Made by a program: the position numbers and the translations under genes
Notes under the pieces: model-generated
Told to the model about the DNA's origin: nothing
Databases searched by the model: none
The model's input: only the letters and a program-made list of their open reading frames with translations
NCBI GenBank assembly: GCA_035545935.1
Contig: DASZXP010000227.1
Coordinates: 655 to 64,654 of the forward strand
DNA: 64,000 nucleotides
Direction: 5' to 3'
Source: Puia sp.
GTDB taxonomy: Bacteria > Bacteroidota > Bacteroidia > Chitinophagales > Chitinophagaceae
Part shown: piece after piece, positions 27,937 through 43,953 of the stretch
How positions within the stretch are numbered: position 1 is the stretch's first letter
Layout of the letters: each line of letters starts with the position of its first letter

Positions 27937-30438
27937 ATGAGCGCCTCCAACAAGCCCGTAGTGGTTGTCATCGGCAATGGCATGGTCGGTCACAGGTTCT
28001 GTGAGAAACTAATGGCTGCCACCTCCTCCTTCCGGATCATCGTTTTTGGCGAAGAGTCCCGGCCGGCGTACGACCGGGTGCACCTGAGCGAGTATTTTAA
28101 TGGGCGGTCGGCCCATGACCTCAGCCTTTCCATGGCAGGCTGGTTTGATGAGCAGGATGTGGAGCTGCACATAGGGGACCCCGTAAGGGAGATCGACCGG
28201 GCAGCCCGGGTGGTGCACTCGAGAAAAGGCATTGTCCAGCCATATGACTGGCTGGTGCTGGCCACCGGCTCCGCCGCCTTTGTACCGGATATCAGCGGTA
28301 TCGAGAAAAAGGGCGTATTCGTCTATCGTACCATCGAAGACCTGGACCTGATCCGGGAGTATGCACGGAGCGCTCAATGTGCAGCCGTCATGGGAGGGGG
28401 GCTGTTGGGGCTGGAGGCTGCCAAAGCCCTGCTCGACCTGGGCATCCCCGATCCCTATGTCATCGAATTTGCCAGCCGTCTGATGCCCAGGCAGATCGAC
28501 AGCGCGGGCAGCCATATCCTGGAGACGAGATTGAAGAAGCTGGGACTGCAGATCCTGCTGAATAAGAGCACCCTGGCGGTGGAAGGCGGGGAGAGCATCC
28601 GCGCCCTGCGTTTTGCCGACGATACAAGCCTGGACCTGGACATGCTGGTCATCTCTGCGGGTATACGGCCCCGTGACGAGCTGGCGAGACTGGCCGGACT
28701 GCAGGTAGGTACCCGAGGCGGCATTCTGGTCAACGAAAAAATGCAAACCAACGACCCGCATATCTTCGCCGTCGGGGAATGCGCGCTGGCATCCGGGATG
28801 ATCTATGGACTGGTGGCGCCGGGATATGAGATGGCGGAAGTGGTGGTCTCTCAATTGACGGAAGGCAACGAATCTTTCACCGGATTTGACATGAGCACCA
28901 AGCTAAAGCTTATTGGCGTGGATGTGGCCAGCTTTGGGGATGCTTTTGTCAGCGAGCCGGATAGCAGGACCATCGTATTCGAGGACAGACATAAAGGCAT
29001 TTACAAACGGATCAATATTACCGGCGATGGAACACGTCTGCTGGGTGGGATCCTTATAGGGGATGCCGCGGCATATAATATATTATTACAGACCGTCAAT
29101 AACCGGCTGCCGCTGCCTCCGGACCCGGAAGACCTGGTCCTTGGCAGCCGGGGCGGCGCCGCTACCGGCGCCGGCGTGATGGACCTTCCCGACGAGGCGT
29201 TGATCTGTTCCTGCGAGGCTGTTACCAAGGCGGCGATCTGTACGGCCGTAACGGAAAAAGGCGTCGAATCGATGGAGGGAATGAAGAAGTGTACGAAGGC
29301 TGGAACGGGCTGTGGCGGCTGCGTACCCTTGGTAAAGGACCTGATCGCCGGAACATTGAAGGCGAATGGACGCTATATCCGCAATGTCATTTGCGAACAT
29401 TTCGATCAATCCCGCCAGGAGCTGTTGCATCTTATAAAGCTCCATGATATAAAGACCTATGACGAGGTGCTGGGCCGTTGGGGGAAAGGCGATGGATGCG
29501 AGGTCTGCAAACCGGCCGTGGCCAGCATCCTGGCCAGCTGCTGGAATGAGAATATCCAACAGCAGCCTGTTATACAGGACAGCAATGACCGGTTCCTGGC
29601 CAATATCCAGAAAGGCGGCACCTATTCTGTCGTGCCCCGCATACCCGGCGGAGAGATCACTCCCGAGAAGCTCATCGTACTGGGCAAGGTGGCAAAGAAA
29701 TACAACCTCTATACAAAGATCACGGGCGGACAACGTATCGACCTCTTTGGCGCGCATGTGGGCGACCTGCCCGATATATGGGAAGAGCTGATCGAGGCGG
29801 GTTTCGAGAGCGGCCATGCATATGGTAAGGCCCTTCGCACCGTAAAAAGCTGTGTCGGCAGCACCTGGTGCCGTTTTGGTTTGCACGACAGCGTCTCTTT
29901 CGCCATCGAGGTAGAAGAAAGATACCGCGGTATCCGTGCTCCGCATAAATTAAAAGGCGGCGTCAGCGGTTGTATCCGCGAATGCGCCGAAGCGCAAAGC
30001 AAGGACTTTGGCATCATCGCCACCGAGAAGGGATGGAACCTGTATGTCTGTGGCAATGGCGGGTCCAAACCACAGCACGCACAGCTCCTGGCTACCGACA
30101 TCGATACCGCAACGGTGATACGCTATCTCGACAGATTCCTCATGTTCTATATCCAGACTGCTGATCCCCTGACCCGCACCGCCACCTGGCTGAATAAGAT
30201 GGATGGCGGTATGTCCTACCTGAAGAATGTGGTCCTGGAGGACAGTCTGGGCATGGCAGCGCAATGGGAGGCAGAGATGCAGGCGCTGGTGAATAGCTAT
30301 AAGTGTGAATGGAAGGAAGTGGTGGAAGATCCCGCCCTCCGGCAGCGGTTCGTTCATTTTGTAAATGCGCCCCGAAAAAAAGACCCCAGCGTATCCTTCG
30401 ATGACATGCGGGGACAGATCAAGGCCAAAGAATGGTAA
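27937..30438 (+). CDS. nirB: NADH-dependent nitrite reductase, large subunit
   Basis: FAD/NAD sites IGNGMVG and GGGLLGLEAA, two BFD-like Cys clusters and the siroheme/4Fe-4S ligands CVGSTWC...GCIREC. Confidence 0.97.
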   Translation: MSASNKPVVVVIGNGMVGHRFCEKLMAATSSFRIIVFGEESRPAYDRVHLSEYFNGRSAHDLSLSMAGWFDEQDVELHIGDPVREIDRAARVVHSRKGIVQPYDWLVLATGSAAFVPDISGIEKKGVFVYRTIEDLDLIREYARSAQCAAVMGGGLLGLEAAKALLDLGIPDPYVIEFASRLMPRQIDSAGSHILETRLKKLGLQILLNKSTLAVEGGESIRALRFADDTSLDLDMLVISAGIRPRDELARLAGLQVGTRGGILVNEKMQTNDPHIFAVGECALASGMIYGLVAPGYEMAEVVVSQLTEGNESFTGFDMSTKLKLIGVDVASFGDAFVSEPDSRTIVFEDRHKGIYKRINITGDGTRLLGGILIGDAAAYNILLQTVNNRLPLPPDPEDLVLGSRGGAATGAGVMDLPDEALICSCEAVTKAAICTAVTEKGVESMEGMKKCTKAGTGCGGCVPLVKDLIAGTLKANGRYIRNVICEHFDQSRQELLHLIKLHDIKTYDEVLGRWGKGDGCEVCKPAVASILASCWNENIQQQPVIQDSNDRFLANIQKGGTYSVVPRIPGGEITPEKLIVLGKVAKKYNLYTKITGGQRIDLFGAHVGDLPDIWEELIEAGFESGHAYGKALRTVKSCVGSTWCRFGLHDSVSFAIEVEERYRGIRAPHKLKGGVSGCIRECAEAQSKDFGIIATEKGWNLYVCGNGGSKPQHAQLLATDIDTATVIRYLDRFLMFYIQTADPLTRTATWLNKMDGGMSYLKNVVLEDSLGMAAQWEAEMQALVNSYKCEWKEVVEDPALRQRFVHFVNAPRKKDPSVSFDDMRGQIKAKEW

Positions 30439-30449
30439 ATAAACTTTTT

Positions 30450-30797
30450 ATGGAAATAACTACGACTCCCAAATGGAGATTTGCCTGTCAGGTGGAAGAT
30501 ATCCCTTCCGATGGGGGCGCCTGTGTCAGCCTCGGTGAGGAACAGATCGCGATCTTTAATTTCTCCCGCCGTGGACAATGGTATGCCACCGAGAACCGCT
30601 GTCCGCACAAACAGCAGATGGCGCTGTCCCGTGGCATGACCGGCAGCATGGGGGAACAGTGCGAACCCAAAGTGGCCTGTCCCTTTCACAAAAAGACCTT
30701 TTCGCTGACGACGGGCGAATGCCTGACGGGGGAGGATTATAAGATCAGGACCTTTCCGGTGAAAGTGAAGGAGGGTAAGCTGTATATTTGGGTATAA
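30450..30797 (+). CDS. nirD: Nitrite reductase small (Rieske-type) subunit
   Basis: QIAIF, ENRCPHK, SRG..G and VACPFHK motifs; likely start MEITTTPKW. Confidence 0.93.
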   Translation: MEITTTPKWRFACQVEDIPSDGGACVSLGEEQIAIFNFSRRGQWYATENRCPHKQQMALSRGMTGSMGEQCEPKVACPFHKKTFSLTTGECLTGEDYKIRTFPVKVKEGKLYIWV

Positions 30798-30805
30798 ATC
30801 GATAC

Positions 30806-31756
30806 ATGCGCGACATCTCCCACAAACAGATCACGCTCCGCACCGCAGACGCCATGGGTGTCATCTTCTGTTCACCCACTACCATCGAGCTTATCCGCAA
30901 TGACCAGCTGCCAAAAGGCAACCTCTTCGACGTGGCCCGCGCCGCCGCTTTCCTGGGAGCCAAGAGTACGCCACAGCTGCTGCCCCATTGTCACCCCGTG
31001 ACCATCGATGGGATGGACCTGCAATTTGAATTTCTCGACAAAGACCTGCACGGTCATTTACTGAACGCCGAAGTGTTCACCCGCCATGGCATCCTGATAA
31101 AAGGCCAGGCCCGCTCCATCGGCAGGACTGGCATCGAGATGGAAATGCTGATGGGCATATCCGTGGCCGCGCTGGAGATCTACGATATGCTCAAGCCCGT
31201 GGACAAGCAGTTGGAGATCGGTCATATCCGCCTGCTGGAAAAAAAGGGAGGGAAGAGCGACAGGGAACGATACTTCGCCACGCCCCCTTCCTGCGCCGTG
31301 CTGGTATGTTCGGACTCGACGGCGGCGGGCAAAAGAGAGGACAATAGCGGGAAGATCATCTGCGAAATGCTGGAATCCGTGCGCGCGCAGGTAAAATATT
31401 ATGATATCATCCCCGATGACAAAGAGGCTATCCAGGGAAAGATACGCAAATGGGTGACCGAAGATATACAATTCATCTTCACGACAGGCGGAACAGGCCT
31501 TGGCCCCCGCGACAACACCGTCGATGCGGTACAGGAGATGCTCGAACGGGATGCCGACGGCATCGTGGAAGCCATGCGTGTCTATGGTCAGATGCGTACT
31601 CCCATGGCCATGATGAGCAGGGCCGTAGCAGGGTCCATCGCAGAAACCCTCGTCGTTACCCTGCCCGGCAGCAGCGCCGGCGCCCGGGAATCCCTGGAAG
31701 CGATCCTGCCCGCCATATTCCATGCGCGCAAGATGATGAAAGGAGGGGGGCATTGA
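30806..31756 (+). CDS. moaCB: MoaC-MoaB/Mog fusion (Moco biosynthesis)
   Basis: LLPHCHP, G.EMEML and IYDMLKP (MoaC), followed by TTGGTGLGPRD.T and TLPGS (MogA/MoaB). Likely start MRDISHK. Confidence 0.9.
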   Translation: MRDISHKQITLRTADAMGVIFCSPTTIELIRNDQLPKGNLFDVARAAAFLGAKSTPQLLPHCHPVTIDGMDLQFEFLDKDLHGHLLNAEVFTRHGILIKGQARSIGRTGIEMEMLMGISVAALEIYDMLKPVDKQLEIGHIRLLEKKGGKSDRERYFATPPSCAVLVCSDSTAAGKREDNSGKIICEMLESVRAQVKYYDIIPDDKEAIQGKIRKWVTEDIQFIFTTGGTGLGPRDNTVDAVQEMLERDADGIVEAMRVYGQMRTPMAMMSRAVAGSIAETLVVTLPGSSAGARESLEAILPAIFHARKMMKGGGH

Positions 31757-33652: not shown

Positions 33653-34053
33653 GTCCGTCGCATTGGGGGATTGCCGGGGCAAATGTACTTCGAAACCCGA
33701 CAAATAATTATATTATTTAAATAAATATATGTTTATTGCAAGATAAAAGAGCTAAAATAGGGTATAAATTCATTATTTTTATGATGTACGTAATGTTTGA
33801 GTGGAATTAATTCGATAGGTAGTATAATAAACATTAAATGTATTTTATTTTAATGTATCAAGTCACCCGTCTTTTCCCTCGCTAAACTATTACGTAGTCA
33901 CCCGTCTGCGATAGCCTTCCACGTCTGCGATCAGCCTGCTATGCGAAATCACCGGTGCACCTTCCGGTATACAAAAAATGGCCTCGGTAGAGTAACAGTC
34001 TATCCGAGGCCTGAAGGATAAAATGAATGCTCATTTTAAACCAAAACAAATTT

Positions 34054-35553
34054 ATGATGAAAAAAAGAGATTTCATCGTAGCATTCGTAAGCCTGTTGGT
34101 CCTGGGACGGCCACTCGGCGGACATGCTCAATTTTCTCTCACGGGACAGCTTCGCACCCGTACAGAACTCAGGGACGGCTACGGCACCCTGGAAACGAAA
34201 GGTAACACACCCGCTTTCCTCACCTCCCAACGCGCGCGTCTTAACTTCAGCTACCGTTCTTCCAGAGTGGTTTTCCAGGCCTCCCTACAGGATGTACGGG
34301 TCTGGGGCGCGGATGCCTCCACCATCAACAATGCCGACGGCAATCGCCTCAGCCTGCATGAAGCCTGGGCCGACATCATCCTGGCCAACGCAAAGGACAG
34401 CGCCCTGCCAAAAAACGCTGTCGACTACTTCAGCATACGCATTGGCAGACAGGAGCTGGTATACGACGATCAGCGGCTGCTGGGCAATCTCGACTGGCTG
34501 CAGCAGGCCCGGCGTCACGATGCCGTCGTCTTCAAACTCCTGCACAAAGGCTGGCAGGCGGACCTGGGCGCCGCCTTCAACCAAAACACGGATGCGGTGG
34601 GATATAACGGCACCTATTATACGCCCGGCAACCTGCTCCCTTATGTAAAGGACAGCAAGGGCAACCTGGCCCCTACGCCTGCCGCGATGATACCCCTCGC
34701 CAACGCCGCAGGACTGAGCGCCCGTACAGGCTCCCCCGTGCTGGCTACCGCTGCCGGCACCAACGGCATGAACCAGGATTACAAATCCATGCAGTTCCTC
34801 TACCTGGCTAAAAAATTCGGCAGCACACGTATCGCGGGACTGGCTTTCTCCGACGAATTTGCGAGATACAGCCTCGACTCCGTAAAGAACATCGCCGGTA
34901 CGGATACAGGATATATATATGGCCGTAGGTTCAACCACAGCGGCGTTAACACCCGCGTGACCGCCGGCGCCTTATTGACAAGCCGGCTGGGGCAGAAAAA
35001 GGATTGGACCCTGCAGGCCGGCTACTATTACCAGACAGGTAAAAGCAAGGACGGCGTCGCCCTTGGCTCCTATACCACTACCTTGTCCCTTGCCTTTGCC
35101 CGGCAACGCTTTATCTGGACAGCGGGCTGGGATTATTTAAAAGGAGGGTTCGACCCCTTATACGGAACGCCCCATAAATTCTGGGGATCCATGGATTATT
35201 TCTATGCCGCCTCCGGATCGCCGGCCGCGGGACTGAACAACCCTTTCCTGAAAGCAAAATATAGTTCACAGGGAGGGCGGTTCCTGGTGGAGCTGGCCTA
35301 TCACTATTTCGCCTTTGCCGACGATCAGCAGGACGCCAAGGGCGATCCGCTGTCCAAATATTTGGGCAGCGAAGTGGATGTCACACTGGACTACAGCCTG
35401 AACAAGATCACGACGCTGGAGCTGGGCGCCTCCCGGATGGCGGCCACACACAGCATGGAATACGCCAAGGGCATCACCCCCGGCGCCGCTCGTCTGAACG
35501 CCGGCTGGGTCTATCTGCAGGTAAACATCCGCCCGGACTTCTTTAATAAATAA
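34054..35553 (+). CDS. Alginate-export (AlgE-like) family outer-membrane porin
   Basis: Signal peptide, GQLRTRTELRDGY, SLQDVRVWG, IGRQEL.YDDQRLLGNLDW.Q.AR.HD and LYGTPHKFWG.MDYF. Confidence 0.8.
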   Translation: MMKKRDFIVAFVSLLVLGRPLGGHAQFSLTGQLRTRTELRDGYGTLETKGNTPAFLTSQRARLNFSYRSSRVVFQASLQDVRVWGADASTINNADGNRLSLHEAWADIILANAKDSALPKNAVDYFSIRIGRQELVYDDQRLLGNLDWLQQARRHDAVVFKLLHKGWQADLGAAFNQNTDAVGYNGTYYTPGNLLPYVKDSKGNLAPTPAAMIPLANAAGLSARTGSPVLATAAGTNGMNQDYKSMQFLYLAKKFGSTRIAGLAFSDEFARYSLDSVKNIAGTDTGYIYGRRFNHSGVNTRVTAGALLTSRLGQKKDWTLQAGYYYQTGKSKDGVALGSYTTTLSLAFARQRFIWTAGWDYLKGGFDPLYGTPHKFWGSMDYFYAASGSPAAGLNNPFLKAKYSSQGGRFLVELAYHYFAFADDQQDAKGDPLSKYLGSEVDVTLDYSLNKITTLELGASRMAATHSMEYAKGITPGAARLNAGWVYLQVNIRPDFFNK

Positions 35554-35580: not shown

Positions 35581-36873
35581 ATGATCTCCAACAACCAACC
35601 TCTTACTTCCATCCGCCTGTTTTCGCTCAGCAGCATACAAATGCGCACCTTCCATATCACCTGGCTGATGTTCTTCGTTTGTTTTTTCGGATGGTTCGGA
35701 TTGGCGCCACTGATGCCGACCATTCGAGCCGACCTGGGGTTGACCAAGGCGCAGATAGGAAACACCATTATCGCATCCGTGTCTTCCACGATCCTGGCCA
35801 GACTGATCATCGGCAGGCTTTGCGATAAATGGGGACCGCGCAAGACGGCCATACGACTGCTGTTGATAGGATCCATACCCGTCTTCCTGGTGGGACTGGC
35901 AAAAGACTATACCACCTTCCTGCTGTTCCGTTTGGCTATTGGAATTATCGGCGCCTCTTTTGTCATCACGCAATTCCATGCCTCTATGATGTTTGCGCCT
36001 AACATTCGAGGCACGGCCAACGCCATTACCGGAGGCTGGGGCAACCTGGGCGGTGGCGTGACCAATATGGTAATGCCATTGATCTTTGCCGCCATCGTGG
36101 GCTTTGGCTATACCAAACACGAAGCCTGGCGTTATGCCATGATCCTGCCGGGGCTGATGATGCTGGTCATCGCCTTTCTTTACTATCGTTATACGAAGGA
36201 TACGCCCCAAGGTAATTTTTCGGACATCGGACGCAGCAGCTCCGCGGGCAGGACAGACTGGTCGGCCCTGGCTGACTGGCGCGTATGGGCATTGATGTTG
36301 GCGTATGGCTGCTGCTTTGGCATGGAGATCACCTTCGACAATGTGGCATCCCTTCATTTCGTGGATTCTTTCAAACTTTCTCAAAGCAGCGCGGGTCTCT
36401 GGGCCGGTATCTTTGGGGCCATGAACCTTTTTGCCCGCGCTCTGGGCGGGATGATATCCGACAAGGTCGGGGCGCGTTGGGGACTCCGGGGGAAGGGGAT
36501 CTTGCTGGCCGCAGTGCTCCTGCTGGAAGGAGCAGGACTTGTCGCCTTTGCCGCCGCCGGCTCTTTTGCGCTGGCCATCGTCTGTATGCTGTCCTTTGCG
36601 CTATTCCTTAAAATGGCCAATGGCGCCACCTATGGCATAACACCTTTTATCAACGAAAAAAATATAGGACTCGTCAGCGGCGTGGTAGGCGCGGGAGGGA
36701 ACTTAGGAGGTATGATCTTTGGGTTCCTGTTCAAATCGGAATCTATCAGCTATGTGCAAGCCTTTACATATATAGGCTTTACGGTCATGATCGTATCCCT
36801 GATCATTCTGTCGACCCGCTTCCGGAAGGAAACTTCCGAAGAAATAGCCCTGGCGGAAACAGCATTTTCATGA
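35581..36873 (+). CDS. NarK/NRT2 family nitrate/nitrite MFS transporter
   Basis: Nitrate signature GTANAITGGWGNLGGG and FARALGG..SD; multiple TM helices consistent with an MFS fold. Confidence 0.92.
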   Translation: MISNNQPLTSIRLFSLSSIQMRTFHITWLMFFVCFFGWFGLAPLMPTIRADLGLTKAQIGNTIIASVSSTILARLIIGRLCDKWGPRKTAIRLLLIGSIPVFLVGLAKDYTTFLLFRLAIGIIGASFVITQFHASMMFAPNIRGTANAITGGWGNLGGGVTNMVMPLIFAAIVGFGYTKHEAWRYAMILPGLMMLVIAFLYYRYTKDTPQGNFSDIGRSSSAGRTDWSALADWRVWALMLAYGCCFGMEITFDNVASLHFVDSFKLSQSSAGLWAGIFGAMNLFARALGGMISDKVGARWGLRGKGILLAAVLLLEGAGLVAFAAAGSFALAIVCMLSFALFLKMANGATYGITPFINEKNIGLVSGVVGAGGNLGGMIFGFLFKSESISYVQAFTYIGFTVMIVSLIILSTRFRKETSEEIALAETAFS

Positions 36874-39800
36874 GGAAAGCGCACTCTTTTTCCACCACCT
36901 GTTGTTACTGCGGAGTAGGCTGCGGCATCACCGTCCATAAGGACAAAAAAGGGGATATCACGGTGCAGGGCGATGCGGCCTATCCGGTGAACAAAGGGAT
37001 GTTGTGCAGCAAGGGTCTCAATCTGCACTATACTGTCAACGACAGGAGCGATCGTCTTCTGTACCCGCAGATGCGATACAACAAACAAATGCCTTTGCAA
37101 CGGGTCAGCTGGGAGACAGCCATCGACAGAGCAGCGGCCGTATTCAGGTCCCTGGTTCAAAAATATGGACCGGACTCCGTGGCCTTTTATATATCCGGTC
37201 AATGCCTGACGGAGGAATATTATGTGATCAATAAGCTGATGAAAGGCTTCATCGGCAGCAACAATGTCGACAGCAATTCCCGTCTCTGTATGAGCAGCGC
37301 GGTCGCCGCCTATAAAAAGGCCCTGGGAGAGGACAGCGTTCCCCTGAACTATTCGGACATCGAAGAGGCGGATTGCTTTTTTATCACGGGCGCCAACCCG
37401 GCCTGGTGTCATCCCATTCTCTGGAGAAGGATAGAAGCGCACAAGGCGGCCAATCCCCACGTAAGGATCATCGTATCGGACCCACGGCAGACAGATACAG
37501 CGGCGCTCGCGGATTGCTATCTGCCCATCCGCCCCGGTACGGATATCACCCTGCATCATGCCTTCGGCAGGATCCTCATCGAAGAAGGCAATATCGATCC
37601 CAATTTCATAAAGGATCATACGGAAGGTTTTGCCGCCTATAAAGAGGCTGCCTTCCAGCACAGTATCGAAGAATCCGCCTCATTGTGCGGCATATCCGAA
37701 ATGGATATCCGCCGGGCCGCGGGTTATATCGCGGACGCCAAAGGATTTATCAGCATGTGGACCATGGGGCTGAACCAAAGCGTCAACGGCGTGGACAAGA
37801 TCCTTTCCCTGATCAACCTGCACCTGGCGACAGGACATATCGGCAAGCCGGGATCAGGGCCTTTTTCTCTCACCGGTCAGCCAAACGCCATGGGCGGCCG
37901 GGAGGTAGGAGGACTGGCCAATCTGCTGCCAGCTCATATGGACCTTTCCAACCCCGTCCATCGTGACAAATTGCAGCAGTTCTGGAATGGCGTGCCTATC
38001 TCGCCAGCGCCGGGATTGACAGCCACCGAGATCTTCGAAGCCCTGGAAAAGGGAAAACTAAAGGCCATCTGGATCATTGGCACCAACCCTTTAATAAGCC
38101 TGCCGGATGTGCGACAGGCAGAGGCCGCTCTTAAAAAAGCAAAATTCGTCGTGGTACAGGAGATCAGCAACAAACCCGAGACATTGACCTACGCGGACCT
38201 GGTGCTGCCTGCTGCCGGCTGGACGGAAAAGGAAGGCACCATGACAAACTCCGAACGAAGGATCAGCTACCTCCATAAGATCGTAGACCCTCCGGGCGAA
38301 GCATTGCCGGATGCCGACATCATTTGCCGCTTGGCCAGGAAAATGGGATTCCCTGGCTTTGACTTCCCCGACGCAGCAGCTATCTACAAAGAATATGCCC
38401 GGCTGACAAAAGGCTCATCCATCGATATCAGCGATCTCAGCCATGAAGCGCTGCGCGAACAACGCTCGGTACAGTGGCCGCGCACAAAGGACGGCCCTAC
38501 CGCCACACCATTCCATGACCTGCGATTCTCCACTCCTTCAGGTCGCGCTCAATTCCACGCCGTACCCGATACCCCTTCCAGCGAGATGCCGGACGCGGAC
38601 TTCCCCCTGGTACTAACGACGGGGCGTATCCGTGATCAATGGCATACCATGACAAAGACAGGGAAGGTCAATAAATTGAAACAGCATATCGCACAGGCTT
38701 TTCTGGAAATACATCCCGAGGATGCCCGTCCCCTGGGCATTGCCGATAACGACCTGGTGCTGGTAAGCTCCGGACGGGGCGAGGCGAGGGTAAAGGCCCG
38801 TTACTCCCTATCCATCCGGAAAGGGGTGGTATTCATGCCCATGCATTGGGGCAAGGTGCTGGGGAACGACCTCAACAGGGCCAACAATCTTACCAACAAT
38901 CTGGTAGACCCTGTCTCCAAAGAGCCCGACTTCAAATACTCCGCCGTCCGTGTCGTCAAATACAGAAAGCCAAAGGAAAGGATCGTCATCATTGGAGCAG
39001 GCGCCGGCGCCTTCGGATTTGTCCAGTCCTACCGGCAGCTGAACAAAGAGGACGAGATCGTGATCTTCAGCAAAGAAAATTTCCCTTTTTACAATCGGGT
39101 ACAGCTCCCTGACTATATCAGCGGCACGCAGGACTGGGAGCAGCTGATCAAGATGACGGACGAAGAAGAGCCCCTGTATAACATCCGGCTGCATAAAGGC
39201 GTCAGTATCGAGACCATCGACAGGGAAGAGAAATATGTAGTGGATTCCAGAGGTGTAACGACCTATTTTGATAAACTATTGCTGGCCACGGGCAGCAGGG
39301 CCGCGCTTCCAAAGAACGTTCCTTTCCTGGAGGGCATTTTTACCATGCGCAGCCGTACGGACGCCGACAGGTTCAAGCAGCAGCTGCCGGCCGGCGGTCA
39401 TGTCGTCATCGTGGGAGGCGGGTTGCTGGGATTGGAAATGGCAGCATCGCTTCGGGAAATAAATATAAGGGTCTCCGTTATCCACCGCAGCTCGCGCTTT
39501 CTCGACAGACAGCTGGACGTATTGGCCAGCCAGCTGCTCCACGAAGAGATCATCGACCAGGGCTGTGACGTATACTATTCCGACGAAGTACAGCTGTTCT
39601 ATGGACACCCCCGGCTGACGGGCATCCGTCTCAAAAGCGGCAGGATGATCGATTGCGATGCCCTGATATTTGCCATCGGCACCGTACCGAATACCGAACT
39701 GGCCGTGGCGGCGGGACTGCATTGCCAACGGGGCGTCATCGTCAATGAATACATGCAGACCAGCGACCCTAACATTTATGCGGTAGGAGAGATCGCAGAA

Positions 39801-40370
39801 TTCGATGGAATGCTCTATGGCTTTACCGCAGCAGCGGAACAGCAGGCCGGCATATTCGCCGGCTATCTCAGTGGGGACATCAGCAACTATTACAAGGGCA
39901 CGACTTCGATGAGCATCATCAAGATCCATGGATTCGACCTTTGCTGTCTTGGTATTCCCGACAGACCGAACGAACATGAATATGAAGAGATCGTCTTCAT
40001 CGACCTGGCCCGCCGTTATTACAAGAAATGTATCGTCCACCAGGACAGGCTCGTAGGAGCTATCCTCGTCGGGGACAAAGACGAATTCCTGGAATTCAAA
40101 GAACTCATCTCCGGCCGGATCGAGCTGAACGAACGGCGTCTTCAGCTGCTGCGCAGCGGGAAAAGGTCGGAACCCGTACTGGGCAAGCTGGTCTGCAGCT
40201 GTAACAACGTGGGCAGCGGCAACATCGAGAACAAAATTGCATCAGGCTGTACGGAGCTGGCGCAGATCTGCGCCGCTACGGGAGCTGGCACCGGTTGCGG
40301 CTCCTGCCGGCCCGAGGTAAAAAAGATATTGGAAAACAAACTACAGGAGGCGGCCATAGGTGTTTCGTAA
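36870..40370 (+). CDS. Assimilatory Mo-bisMGD nitrate reductase fused to an FAD/NADH oxidoreductase and a BFD [2Fe-2S] domain
   Basis: CCYCGVGC...LCSKG (4Fe-4S), SRLCMSSA (Mo ligand), GQPNAMGGRE, LTTGRIRDQWHT, then two GxG motifs and CSCNNV...GCGSC. Confidence 0.92.
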   Translation: MRKAHSFSTTCCYCGVGCGITVHKDKKGDITVQGDAAYPVNKGMLCSKGLNLHYTVNDRSDRLLYPQMRYNKQMPLQRVSWETAIDRAAAVFRSLVQKYGPDSVAFYISGQCLTEEYYVINKLMKGFIGSNNVDSNSRLCMSSAVAAYKKALGEDSVPLNYSDIEEADCFFITGANPAWCHPILWRRIEAHKAANPHVRIIVSDPRQTDTAALADCYLPIRPGTDITLHHAFGRILIEEGNIDPNFIKDHTEGFAAYKEAAFQHSIEESASLCGISEMDIRRAAGYIADAKGFISMWTMGLNQSVNGVDKILSLINLHLATGHIGKPGSGPFSLTGQPNAMGGREVGGLANLLPAHMDLSNPVHRDKLQQFWNGVPISPAPGLTATEIFEALEKGKLKAIWIIGTNPLISLPDVRQAEAALKKAKFVVVQEISNKPETLTYADLVLPAAGWTEKEGTMTNSERRISYLHKIVDPPGEALPDADIICRLARKMGFPGFDFPDAAAIYKEYARLTKGSSIDISDLSHEALREQRSVQWPRTKDGPTATPFHDLRFSTPSGRAQFHAVPDTPSSEMPDADFPLVLTTGRIRDQWHTMTKTGKVNKLKQHIAQAFLEIHPEDARPLGIADNDLVLVSSGRGEARVKARYSLSIRKGVVFMPMHWGKVLGNDLNRANNLTNNLVDPVSKEPDFKYSAVRVVKYRKPKERIVIIGAGAGAFGFVQSYRQLNKEDEIVIFSKENFPFYNRVQLPDYISGTQDWEQLIKMTDEEEPLYNIRLHKGVSIETIDREEKYVVDSRGVTTYFDKLLLATGSRAALPKNVPFLEGIFTMRSRTDADRFKQQLPAGGHVVIVGGGLLGLEMAASLREINIRVSVIHRSSRFLDRQLDVLASQLLHEEIIDQGCDVYYSDEVQLFYGHPRLTGIRLKSGRMIDCDALIFAIGTVPNTELAVAAGLHCQRGVIVNEYMQTSDPNIYAVGEIAEFDGMLYGFTAAAEQQAGIFAGYLSGDISNYYKGTTSMSIIKIHGFDLCCLGIPDRPNEHEYEEIVFIDLARRYYKKCIVHQDRLVGAILVGDKDEFLEFKELISGRIELNERRLQLLRSGKRSEPVLGKLVCSCNNVGSGNIENKIASGCTELAQICAATGAGTGCGSCRPEVKKILENKLQEAAIGVS

Positions 40371-41829
40371 GAACTATACGGTCAAGATCAATCTTCCCGG
40401 CGGCATCGTCGCTCCGGGGGAACTGTATGCCATTGTAGAGGCGGCTGAACGGGCAAGGGTTTCAGACATGCAGCTGGGCACACGCCAGCAGCTGTTTTGC
40501 AAGGTGACGGATAAATACGGACCCGATTTTTTAAAGGCGCTGCAGGAAGCCGGTGTTTCCTTCGAAGCCAACGAGGACAGACATCCCAACATCGTCAGCT
40601 CCTATGTCACGGAAGGGATCTTTACCACCCAAAGCTGGGTCAGCGAGGGACTCTACAAGGATATCCTATCCGCCTTCGACTTCAAACCCCGCCTGAAGAT
40701 CAATCTGGTGGAAAAAAGCCAATCCTTTGTACCCTTCTTCACCGGCAATATCAACTTTATCAGCTCCGACATCGGCAACTACTGGTACCTCTACATACGG
40801 ATGCCCCAGACCACGCAGATCCATCCCTGGAAAGACCTCGTCTGTTCCGAAGATATCCCGCGTATCAGCCGGATCATCGAAGAGCTGATACTCCAGGGGA
40901 AACCGTTCCCGGGAGATGAACTGTACGCCGCTGTCCTTCCCCATGGCCCTTTTGCCACACAGCCGGTGAGAGCAGCGTTGCAATGGCCTGTCTTCGACCT
41001 CCCTTATTACGAAGGTTTCGCCCGATGGAAGAACAAAATATGGCTCGGCATCTACCGTAGAGAAGAGCTCTTCCCCGTCGCTTTTCTAAAGGACATTTGC
41101 CTTATCTGCCTGGAGACCCGTATCGGACAGCTGTATACCACGCCATGGAAATCCCTGATCATAAAGGGCATCGGGGAAAGTCACCGGGCATTATGGGAAT
41201 ACGTCATGGGGAAATACCGTATCAACCTCCGGCACGCCGGCAATGAGCTGAACTGGCAGGTAGAAGACATGAATGAAGAAGGCTTGCGGCTCAAGCGGTA
41301 CCTGGTACGCCAGCTCGATCTGGAAGATGTCCGTACGGAAGGGTTATGCTTTGCCATCAAGACCCGACCGAAGTCAGGCCTCTCGGGCTCCGTCATCATT
41401 CGCAAACAGACGGGAGGACGCGCCGACCAGCGGAAACTGCTGGACAGATATGATATTTTGCATACACCCGATTTCAATGCCAACTCAAAAGAGTTCATCC
41501 TCTATCGGGAAGGCCTGGAAAAAGAAAACCTCTTTGTCTACCTGGTCTCGCTATGTAAATCCTTTTATGAACAACAAAGCGGGAGGGAGCCCGCCCCTCT
41601 CCAAAGGCCCTTTGGAGGCATCGATACCTCCTCCGGGAATGATAAGAATGCGACGGTCTTCCAATGCCGGCACTGTCTTACGCTGTATGACGAACAATAC
41701 GGCGACCCGGACGCAGGCGAACCTCCCGGACGCCCCTTCGAACAGACGGCTCCCGGCTATGCCTGTCCTGTCTGCGGCAGCGGTAAAGAGGACTTCCAAC
41801 CCGTCGAAAAAACGCAGTTTATGGGCTGA
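40360..41829 (+). CDS. NiR/SiR ferredoxin-like half-domain protein with C-terminal rubredoxin
   Basis: GTG start; KINLPGGIV..GEL..I...A.......LGTRQQL and CRHC...YDEQYGDP...CPVC. Confidence 0.8.
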   Translation: MFRKNYTVKINLPGGIVAPGELYAIVEAAERARVSDMQLGTRQQLFCKVTDKYGPDFLKALQEAGVSFEANEDRHPNIVSSYVTEGIFTTQSWVSEGLYKDILSAFDFKPRLKINLVEKSQSFVPFFTGNINFISSDIGNYWYLYIRMPQTTQIHPWKDLVCSEDIPRISRIIEELILQGKPFPGDELYAAVLPHGPFATQPVRAALQWPVFDLPYYEGFARWKNKIWLGIYRREELFPVAFLKDICLICLETRIGQLYTTPWKSLIIKGIGESHRALWEYVMGKYRINLRHAGNELNWQVEDMNEEGLRLKRYLVRQLDLEDVRTEGLCFAIKTRPKSGLSGSVIIRKQTGGRADQRKLLDRYDILHTPDFNANSKEFILYREGLEKENLFVYLVSLCKSFYEQQSGREPAPLQRPFGGIDTSSGNDKNATVFQCRHCLTLYDEQYGDPDAGEPPGRPFEQTAPGYACPVCGSGKEDFQPVEKTQFMG

Positions 41830-41848: not shown

Positions 41849-42805
41849 ATGTCCGTTATACACGATCGATATGGAAGGACTTTCAGGACCTTACGGCTGA
41901 GCCTGCTCAACCATTGCAACCTGGGTTGTGTCTATTGTGTGGCTGGTGACAATGAGATCAAGGCGGCCAATGCCACCCATTCGTCCCTCCCCGTATCCAG
42001 CCTTCTCGACATTATCAGACGGCTGCACAGACACCTGGACCTTTCCACCATTCGCCTTACGGGAGGCGAGCCGCTTTTATACCATGGCCTGACGGGCCTC
42101 ATCGGCGGTATTCGTGAAATGGGCATAACGTCGATCAAGCTGACGACAAATGGATTCCTGCTGGAACGTCTGGCGATGCCGATGAAACAGGCTGGTATGC
42201 GATCCATCAATGTGTCGCTGGATGCCGTCGATGAAGATGTTTTCTACAAGATGAGCAGACGACACGCGGTGCAACGGGTCATCCAGGGCATCGATAAGGC
42301 ATTGGAGGCGGGATTGGAGGTAAAGATCAACAGCGTCATCATGAAGGGGATCAATGACGGACAGATCCTGCCTTTGCTGGAATTTGCTTTTTCCCGCGGT
42401 TGTCGTATCCGGCTCCTGGAAGTGATGGCCATGGGACATTTGCACGACCAGGCGGATCGATACCTCTTTCCACAGGAAGAAATGCTGGCGACGATAGCCG
42501 GCCGCTATACATTCGAGCCGTTGGGCCGGACCAGATCGGCTACGGCAAGCTACTGGCAGACGGATAAGGGACATCAATTTGGGATCATCGCCAACGAGAC
42601 GGCGCCTTTTTGCAGCGACTGCGACAGGCTGAGACTGGACAGCAGCGGACATATCTACGGATGTCTCAGCAGCAATCATCCCATCTTGCTGGATGAGAAC
42701 GAAAACGAAGAGACATGGACAACGAAGCTACAGCAGGCGCTTCTACAGAAACAGACCCTGCGATTCACGGGCAGCGATCTCAGCATGCTGCATATTGGAG
42801 GATAG
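41849..42805 (+). CDS. moaA: GTP 3',8-cyclase (radical SAM)
   Basis: Start MSVIHDRYGR (the track's 41273 extension is a shadow); CNLGCVYC, RLTGGEP, CSDC-x13-C and a terminal GG. Confidence 0.93.
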   Translation: MSVIHDRYGRTFRTLRLSLLNHCNLGCVYCVAGDNEIKAANATHSSLPVSSLLDIIRRLHRHLDLSTIRLTGGEPLLYHGLTGLIGGIREMGITSIKLTTNGFLLERLAMPMKQAGMRSINVSLDAVDEDVFYKMSRRHAVQRVIQGIDKALEAGLEVKINSVIMKGINDGQILPLLEFAFSRGCRIRLLEVMAMGHLHDQADRYLFPQEEMLATIAGRYTFEPLGRTRSATASYWQTDKGHQFGIIANETAPFCSDCDRLRLDSSGHIYGCLSSNHPILLDENENEETWTTKLQQALLQKQTLRFTGSDLSMLHIGG

Positions 42806-43647: not shown

Positions 43648-43953
43648 ATGAAACCTACCATTACCATCGAATATTGTCCTAAATGCGGGTGGATGCTTCG
43701 TGCGGCCTATATGGCGCAGGAACTGCTCACTACTTTTACCGAAGAGCTCCATGCCATAAGCCTTCAACCTTCCGAGCGGTCCGGATCCTATATCATATCC
43801 GTCGGCGGAGAAGAGCTTTTCAACAGACGGAGGGAAGGGCGCTTTCCCGAAATAAAGGAATTGAAACAGCTGGTCAGGGACAAGGTCTGTCCGGACAAGG
43901 ATCTCGGACATTCCGACAAACCGGCGGACAGGAGCGCGGGTTCCGGCATCTGA
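43648..43953 (+). CDS. Rdx (SelT/SelW/SelH) family protein
   Basis: ITIEYCPKCGWMLRAAYMAQELL.TF and FPE.KELKQ.VRD motifs. Confidence 0.9.
   Translation: MKPTITIEYCPKCGWMLRAAYMAQELLTTFTEELHAISLQPSERSGSYIISVGGEELFNRRREGRFPEIKELKQLVRDKVCPDKDLGHSDKPADRSAGSGI

Follow-up and report, generated by a model that had tools for sequence, protein, structure and literature searches.

A rubredoxin-tailed protein with a ligand-less sulfite/nitrite reductase fold accompanies the fused nitrate reductase of Bacteroidota

The 64,000-nucleotide stretch of a Puia sp. contig analyzed here (the window) carries a nitrate assimilation cluster in which the gene directly following the nitrate reductase gene nasA encodes a protein of 489 residues. 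Its body is predicted to adopt the two-repeat fold of sulfite and nitrite reductases (SiR and NiR) and lacks the cysteines that hold the [4Fe-4S] cluster and siroheme; its C-terminus is a rubredoxin. The protein is a real, conserved and uncharacterized component of the pathway and a variant of the SiR/NiR fold superfamily. We tentatively favor a role as an auxiliary redox- and ligand-handling partner of NasA, and not as a second nitrite reductase or an obligatory electron-transfer subunit. We know of no described SiR-fold protein that is cluster-less and rubredoxin-tailed, and a full-text literature search, which did not cover subscription journals, found no paper on this protein. The gene and the parts of its product are as follows:

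40360..41829, + strand: rubredoxin-tailed SiR/NiR-fold gene, 489 residues, GTG start, TGA stop
40360..41589, + strand: body, two-repeat sulfite/nitrite reductase hemoprotein fold without cluster cysteines (residues 1-410; from Foldseek, VIA-align and hhalign)
40372..40551, + strand: first NIR_SIR ferredoxin-like half-domain (PF03460; residues 5-64; 34.3 bits, cut-off 24)
41035..41214, + strand: second ferredoxin-like half-domain (WLGIYRR...TPWKSLIIKG; residues 226-285; from structure and profile only)
41221..41259, + strand: family motif IN-x-RH-xx-ELNWQ (residues 288-300), at the site of the Cx5C cluster loop of CysI; H292 93% and W299 96% conserved
41578..41649, + strand: linker, variable and of low confidence (residues ~407-430; predicted local distance difference test, pLDDT, <50 at 416-425)
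41650..41811, + strand: rubredoxin domain (residues 431-484)

The body was seen by fold alone: the PDB, when queried with either the one sequence or a profile, gave matches to the rubredoxin part only, and no Pfam family matched residues 100-430. The AlphaFold 2 (AF2) model, built from an alignment of 80 family members, had a mean pLDDT of 92.8 and a predicted template modeling score (pTM) of 0.82 and was poorly defined only at residues 416-425. Foldseek matched the modeled body to NirA of M. tuberculosis (1zj8; E 1.5e-17, template modeling (TM) score 0.64), to the E. coli sulfite reductase hemoprotein SiRHP and to plant nitrite reductases, with E from 1e-17 to 1e-13 and TM about 0.6. VIA-align placed residues 7-427 of the model on residues 81-566 of E. 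coli SiRHP (4g38) with Z 29.4, 386 aligned residues and a root-mean-square deviation (rmsd) of 3.2 Å, and gave Z of about 25 for NirA and plant NiR. The genome's own CysI (P0272) aligned colinearly with the body over 377 columns in hhalign, and feature and fold searches of the ESM Atlas returned only the protein's own family and canonical SiR/NiR clusters. Because the AF2 model, the SiRHP and NirA structure matches and the profile alignments to CysI and NirB all point this way, the body as modeled is a complete two-repeat fold of the SiRHP/NirA type.

The first-pass annotation of this DNA, made from the sequence alone, had proposed two NiR/SiR ferredoxin-like half-domains, and both were recovered. 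The first is found by Pfam, which detects the NIR_SIR_ferr half-domain in 73 of the 80 family members. The second, which has no Pfam match, is supported by the secondary structure of the AF2 model (strand 226-232, helix 240-252, strand 265-271, helix 273-285), by the colinear alignment to CysI and by the whole-fold matches to SiRHP and NirA, which also bear out the structural likeness to SiRHP and NiR that the annotation had supposed. All the motifs that it quoted are present: KINLPGGIV (residues 9-17), LGTRQQL (39-45), LGIYRR (229-234), LYTTPWKSLIIKG (258-270), CRHC (436-439) and CPVC (469-472).

The cysteine ligands of the reductases are gone, as the annotation had also claimed. Outside the rubredoxin, the only alignment columns with at least 30% cysteine are 247 (58%), 250 (75%) and 399 (31%), none of them at a ligand position. 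In the hhalign comparison the Cx5C loop of CysI falls on a deletion around IN-x-RH-xx-ELNWQ, and the Cx3C site aligns with non-cysteine residues. A correctly placed pair of Cx5C and Cx3C was found in none of the full-length proteins (≥400 residues) among the 150 best representatives. Likewise, the NIR_SIR 4Fe-4S/siroheme domain (PF01077) was detected neither in the whole protein (E up to 0.01) nor in its segments (E up to 10), nor in any of the 80 family members (E up to 0.01). Because no full-length protein among the 150 keeps the cysteine pairs, a [4Fe-4S] cluster with its cysteine bridge to siroheme is, on sequence grounds, excluded for the whole family; with all four cluster/siroheme cysteines lost, the protein should carry out no canonical cluster-siroheme reduction of nitrite or sulfite.

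The surroundings of the lost site have a pattern of their own. In E. coli SiRHP the anion-binding residues are Arg83, Arg153, Lys215 and Lys217, and the N-terminal 80 residues bind the flavoprotein (PMC11947256). These 80 residues are missing here, the model beginning at SiRHP residue 81. Mapping by profile alignment to the genome's own CysI and by structural offset (model residue 7 = SiRHP 81), not by coordinates, makes K9 the equivalent of R83 (basic in 84% of the family), R42 that of R117 (94% conserved) and K113 that of K217 (basic in 83%). Since basic residues are kept at these three positions, the old active-site region appears to be remodeled, not randomized. The invariant residues of the 80-sequence alignment are W93, Q121 and the four rubredoxin cysteines. 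As the protein lacks three hallmarks of siroheme reductases, namely the cluster cysteines, PF01077 and the full set of anion-binding residues, classing it with the nitrite or sulfite reductases would be wrong.

The rubredoxin, by contrast with the cluster ligands, is intact, again as first annotated. Pfam Rubredoxin (PF00301) matches residues 434-479 with 39.3 bits (cut-off 23), and C436, C439, C469 and C472, which form two CxxC knuckles, are invariant in 80 of 80 sequences. Compared with rubredoxin structures, this part of the model gave Z 9.4 and an rmsd of 1.1-1.7 Å over 52-54 residues; the best PDB rubredoxin matched with E 4.9e-13. By profile and by model, the domain is a regular member of the rubredoxin family, and the linker of ~25 residues in front of it can be read, from the model, as a flexible tether.

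For the position of the gene, these neighbors matter:

36870..40370, + strand: fused nitrate reductase (NasA) gene, the upstream partner, encoding a single chain of 1166 residues
40360..40370, + strand: 11-nt overlap between the start of the gene and the end of nasA, whose stop codon TAA lies at 40368-40370
41849..42805, + strand: moaA, downstream after a 19-nt spacer, followed by moaD, moaE, an Rdx-family open reading frame (ORF) and mobA
27937-30438: NirB, large subunit of NADH nitrite reductase, in the same cluster as the gene

The overlap with nasA is as first described: by ORF check, GTG 40360 is the first possible start downstream of an in-frame stop, and a GGAGG (40346-40350) stands 9 nt ahead of it. 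The same −11 overlap, with ATG or GTG as start, is kept in the loci of the six closest relatives (L040-L046). The fused NasA begins with a molybdenum bis-molybdopterin guanine dinucleotide (Mo-bisMGD) NasA module (residues 1 to ~700, including an N-terminal Fe4S4 domain), which is followed by a flavin adenine dinucleotide (FAD)/NAD(P)H reductase, a Rubredoxin_C domain and a BFD-like [2Fe-2S] domain. In Klebsiella-type systems the roles of the Mo-bisMGD NasA and of the FAD/NAD(P)H-[2Fe-2S] reductase lie on separate proteins. The reductase module is of the pyridine-nucleotide-disulfide type and resembles the N-terminal half of NirB (NirB-N) and NorW. The C-terminal ~460 residues of NasA match the N-terminal half of NirB (TIGR02374, positions 1-472), and residues 703-1002 match NorW (NF003437) with E 1e-50 and 172.9 bits, against a cut-off of 392, while being equally like the N-terminal half of NirB.

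The family is large and its tie to nasA is close. An exhaustive search gave 167 representative clusters at 50% identity (E <1e-30), nearly all the full-length ones having 465-510 residues; a word-index search gave more than 2000 matches, labeled just 'rubredoxin'. When one genome was scanned for each species, the presence of relatives was confirmed in at least 574 species genomes (574 of the 599 matching stretches listed). Gene neighbors were scored in the best 80 loci from a locus scan queried with 12 closer sequences; these loci come from Chitinophagaceae, Sphingobacteriaceae, Hymenobacteraceae and relatives. Of the 75 loci that extend far enough upstream, 74 have fused nasA as the closest preceding gene on the same strand, which upholds the coupling to the nitrate reductase proposed at first. 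The two genes overlap in 16 of the 75 loci and are 0-30 nt apart in 27, 31-150 nt apart in 12 and further apart in 20; the arrangement is shared even by members whose identity to the query is only 25%. The downstream neighbor is variable, being moaA in 11 of 80 loci, mobA in 16 and none of the query set in 51.

Co-occurrence across genomes gives a similar picture. Among 300 genomes sampled evenly from the phylum, together with the genome of the window, 15 had the protein and 17 a full-length fused NasA, and all 14 fused-NasA genomes of the window's class, the window's genome included, also had the protein. Of 14 Bacteroidota genomes sampled, 12 have the gene directly after fused nasA; the window's genome has a single copy. 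Fusions of NasA to the protein, evidence that is weak in any case, were not found among longer proteins. Three contigs of metagenome-assembled genomes labeled Rhodanobacter, Janthinobacterium and Williamsia (L071, L116 and L118) carry narK-nasA loci with the gene that resemble those of Mucilaginibacter and relatives; these probably reflect mis-binning, not transfer to other phyla.

Neither a lack of likeness to NiR/SiR nor dispensability and freedom from nitrate clusters elsewhere, which the first-pass annotation had named as grounds for doubt, was found. The same data make it scarcely credible that the protein is a functionless relic of a former NirA-type nitrite reductase. The loss of the catalytic ligands is what such a relic would show; against it stand the 167 clusters with full-length conservation down to 25% identity, the invariant W93, Q121 and four cysteines together with many positions more than 90% conserved, and the intact reading frames in at least 574 species genomes, with purifying selection even in forms that have lost the rubredoxin (see below).

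The protein shares some features with its structural relatives and differs from them in others. Like CysI/SiRHP (1aop, 4g38), NirA/SirA (1zj8) and plant ferredoxin-nitrite reductase (2akj, 3b0g), it shows the two-repeat fold in full over ~400 residues (Z 25-29, rmsd 3.2-3.9 Å, about 390 aligned), an N-terminal NIR_SIR_ferr domain recognizable by sequence, and basic residues at the R83, R117 and K217 positions. Unlike them, it shares only 13-14% identity, lacks PF01077 and the four cysteines, has a deletion in place of the Cx5C loop, does not conserve the R153 position and conserves K215 weakly, and has gained a C-terminal rubredoxin. With NirB it shares the pathway and the cluster; its first repeat aligns with the NIR_SIR_ferr plus NIR_SIR unit of NirB (hhalign E 1e-4, 162 columns), and the N-terminal half of NirB has a homolog in the reductase module of the fused NasA. 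NirB, on the other hand, retains both Cx5C and Cx3C; its single functional repeat is fused to a reductase of its own, and it lacks a rubredoxin.

Three further roles were considered and rejected. The protein is not a split-off C-terminal half of NirB, as its body has two repeats of which only the first aligns with the NirB unit. Nor does it replace NirB, which is present in the window and in 5 of 5 other genomes tested that bear the protein. A missing siroheme ferrochelatase or dehydrogenase was dismissed likewise: the window carries cobA, contig C76 has a cysG-N-type gene, and the pathway shows no gap even though CbiX was not found.

The auxiliary role that we favor, tentatively, is put forward because of the fold, the lost ligands, the intact rubredoxin, the coupling to nasA, which resembles that of co-translated genes, and the fact that these genomes also have NirBD. 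The protein would act in the cytoplasm as an accessory devoted to the single-chain NAD(P)H nitrate reductase of Bacteroidota, made together with NasA and then associating with it. NorW reduces the rubredoxin tail of NorV; here the tethered rubredoxin would be reduced by the NirB-N/NorW-like FAD module of NasA and would shuttle single electrons. The parallel with NorV/NorW lies in the C-terminal rubredoxin on a linker (NF003954 matches with the tail of NorV) and in a neighbor with a NorW-like module plus Rubredoxin_C; it differs in that the body bears no relation to the flavodiiron fold and shows no recognizable catalytic metal site, and in that the NorW-like module is part of a nitrate reductase and scores far below the NorW cut-off. 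The SiR-like body would be more than a docking surface, and most plausibly would bind nitrite or a tetrapyrrole, as an anionic ligand, in what may remain of the former active-site cavity. By these means the protein would improve or protect nitrate reduction, with nitrite reduction left to the NirBD of the same genomes.

Prediction of a complex between NasA residues 700-1166 and the whole protein gave a weak score of 0.50 (runs 0.46, 0.72 and 0.50), with a best control of 0.00 and partner pLDDT of at least 81. In calibration, 58 of 80 solved complexes attained the mark, as did 2 of 110 mismatched pairs; both mismatches, but only 7 of the 80 solved complexes, did so at scores up to 0.60.

A number of points count against the auxiliary role, the first of them in this same prediction: contact agreement between the runs was 0%, and the score may reflect likeness to solved rubredoxin-reductase complexes, not binding. 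At the remnant active site, the equivalent of R153 is P76, a position basic in about 14% of the family, and that of K215 is R111, basic in 45%, so that, judged from these alignments, anion binding of the SiRHP type is not preserved as such. NasA already holds a full chain of FAD, BFD [2Fe-2S], [4Fe-4S] and Mo, and given that complete chain the rubredoxin is not obviously needed. The remaining points come from genomes in which NasA and the protein are parted, in one of three ways.

First, fused NasA occurs without the protein in three genomes of another family in the phylum sample, and the protein is therefore unlikely to be an obligatory electron-transfer subunit. The cluster of this lineage is:

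L033 2717-11772 (genome G008; also L032 and L034): fused-nasA cluster without the gene, consisting of narK, nirA, a CysJ-like FAD/NAD reductase, a globin and nasA

The nirA of this cluster is two-repeat and retains its NIR_SIR domains. Its globin and reductase recall the NasC-linked module for nitric oxide (NO) detoxification of Bradyrhizobium (PMC4724949).

Second, in one genome (G071) the sole copy of the gene lies away from nasA, among Nramp and VIT1 metal-transporter genes that run in the same direction (L030 9269-12834). The nasA-nirBD-narK genes of this genome are on another contig, and the 1.2-kb AT-rich spacer after nasA holds no remnant of the gene. The context of Nramp/VIT1, as iron/manganese transporter genes, may hint at a link to iron.

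Third, rubredoxin-less forms of about 420 residues occur outside nitrate clusters: P0134 (on two metagenome contigs), P0197 and P0273 (genome G287). The last of these is encoded as follows:

L031 63-1556 (G287): rubredoxin-less gene, encoding P0273

In a tree of the bodies these forms are nested at two places among rubredoxin-bearing sequences, and are therefore derived by loss. P0273 and P0134, which share the truncation, are 58% identical; because their proportion of synonymous differences (pS) is 0.83, which is saturated, against a nonsynonymous proportion (pN) of 0.28, the comparison indicates that the rubredoxin-less body has been under long purifying selection since the rubredoxin was lost. 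P0273 retains nearly all the conserved residues of the body. G287 is 100% complete by markers, and in it neither a NasA-like Mo enzyme nor NirB was found; CysI and a cysG-N gene are present. Because a selected rubredoxin-less form persists in a genome where no NasA or NirB was found, the body probably has a function of its own that needs neither rubredoxin nor NasA, and in these cases at least part of the function would be independent of NasA. They also qualify the proposal of the first-pass annotation that the protein is a dead reductase paralog repurposed as an electron relay, scaffold or maturation factor: a SiR/NiR paralog without ligands it is, and a scaffold role is complicated by the selected rubredoxin-less forms and by the lineage whose fused NasA does without the protein.

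These exceptions, and the active site, bear on a rather improbable alternative, namely that the protein is still an enzyme. Its body would bind siroheme or heme without a cluster, perhaps via His292 or another residue, and the rubredoxin, fed by the NorW-like module of NasA, would replace the [4Fe-4S] cluster as electron entry; the substrate would be nitrite or, more likely, by-products such as NO or hydroxylamine. In line with this, the characterized proteins with tethered rubredoxin that were matched (NorV, a rubredoxin-fused hybrid cluster protein and AlkB-rubredoxin) are all redox enzymes in which the rubredoxin feeds a catalytic metal site. Moreover, residues at the R83, R117 and K217 positions are basic, and the polar Q121 (invariant) and H292 (93%) are conserved; siroheme synthesis genes are present in the window's genome and in the rubredoxin-less G287; and in the lineage without the protein, the globin and FAD/NAD reductase that stand between nirA and nasA are those reminiscent of NO detoxification. 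On the other hand, the body has lost the axial, bridging cysteine as well as both cluster loops, the Cx5C site being marked by deletions; conservation is lacking at the R153 equivalent and in the anion loop, and PF01077 has no match. The body has just one conserved histidine (H292) and no conserved cysteine, and the rubredoxin-less forms would require a different electron donor. We know of no cluster-less siroheme enzyme of the SiR/NiR fold. In its boldest form, to which we give a low probability, the protein would be the first enzyme of this fold without a coupled [4Fe-4S] cluster, holding (siro)heme by a non-cysteine ligand, drawing electrons through its rubredoxin from NasA, and removing reactive species derived from nitrite (NO, hydroxylamine) at source; if true, nitrate reductase and detoxification would form one electron-sharing unit in Bacteroidota.

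A gene for the nitrate reductase maturation protein NarM (PF09655/TIGR02664) lies between nasA and the gene in about 15 Chitinophagaceae loci, within the larger gaps. Two examples are:

L047 5489-5977: NarM gene (PF09655/TIGR02664) inserted between nasA and the gene
L074 5552-6004: NarM gene (PF09655/TIGR02664) inserted likewise

NarM is known from cyanobacteria, and was not found in the window's genome. Like the protein studied here, it is encoded by a small accessory gene that accompanies those for assimilatory nitrate reductase; unlike it, it shows no homology, and no NarM profile matches our protein.

NarM bears on a further alternative, that our protein is itself a maturation or protection factor for NasA, holding or inserting Mo-bisMGD or Fe-S or reductively reactivating the enzyme, with the rubredoxin giving reducing power. 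The gene is co-directional with moaA-moaD-moaE-mobA in the window, and moaA or mobA is the next gene in 27 of the 80 loci; co-translation with NasA would suit a chaperone, and proteins of the rubredoxin type are maturation helpers for O2-tolerant hydrogenases. Four considerations speak against such a factor. NarM, the recognized maturation protein of NasA/NarB, coexists with it in those ~15 loci, so that the two are not substitutes; fused NasA occurs without the protein in another lineage; the rubredoxin-less form occurs in a genome where a NasA query found no Mo-bisMGD enzyme; and the protein has no similarity to chaperones of the NarJ/TorD/NapD type. We therefore consider a maturation role unlikely.

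The only local exception to linkage with nasA, Pinibacter L114, is a second paralog; the canonical copy stands directly after nasA in the same genome. Unlinked paralogs in Pinibacter adjoin stress genes (Usp, RelA/SpoT), which could be taken to favor a sensor or regulator, with the degenerate pocket as the sensor of nitrite or nitrate and the rubredoxin as that of the redox state, and with NasA tuned post-translationally. The basic pocket is partly retained, and pseudoenzymes often become ligand sensors. The protein has no DNA-binding or signaling domain, nothing specific speaks in favor of sensing, and an adjacent Crp/Fnr gene already provides transcriptional control, which leaves a sensor very improbable.

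The cluster as a whole extends beyond the genes so far described. The window also carries cobA, nirB, nirD, moaC-mog, moeA, a divergent crp/fnr gene, a gene for an Alginate_exp-like porin, and narK near nasA. The sequencing runs listed as containing the stretch were all DNA runs from soil metagenomes, one of them probably its source, and no RNA run was among them. MoaC and a MoCF_biosynth domain of the MoaB/Mog type are fused in one protein of 322 residues (30788-31756, +). The Rdx-family ORF between moaE and mobA (43648-43953, +; 101 residues) encodes a SelW/SelT-like thioredoxin fold (PF10262, E 1e-26), an unusual neighbor for these two genes within a string for molybdenum cofactor biosynthesis. 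The porin, an outer-membrane protein of 508 residues with a weak Alginate_exp match (34027-35553, +), is encoded directly upstream of narK, and a homolog in the same position in about half of the related loci suggests a dedicated nitrate/nitrite porin in Bacteroidota.

New here are the map of anion-site residues, the co-occurrence with NarM, the lineage with fused NasA and a globin in which the protein is lacking, the selected rubredoxin-less derivatives and the weak complex prediction. Bacteroidota are abundant in soils, freshwater and the ocean, and their nitrate assimilation is annotated as if it needed nothing beyond fused NasA, NirBD and a transporter. The protein described here is a fourth, near-universally linked and well-conserved one, which databases label merely 'rubredoxin'. 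Its function, once found, would complete the parts list of a major pathway of the nitrogen cycle, and would also show what use is made of a reductase fold after its metal cluster is lost. If the protein does handle electrons or reactive nitrogen by-products, this would explain how these aerobes use an NAD(P)H nitrate reductase safely.

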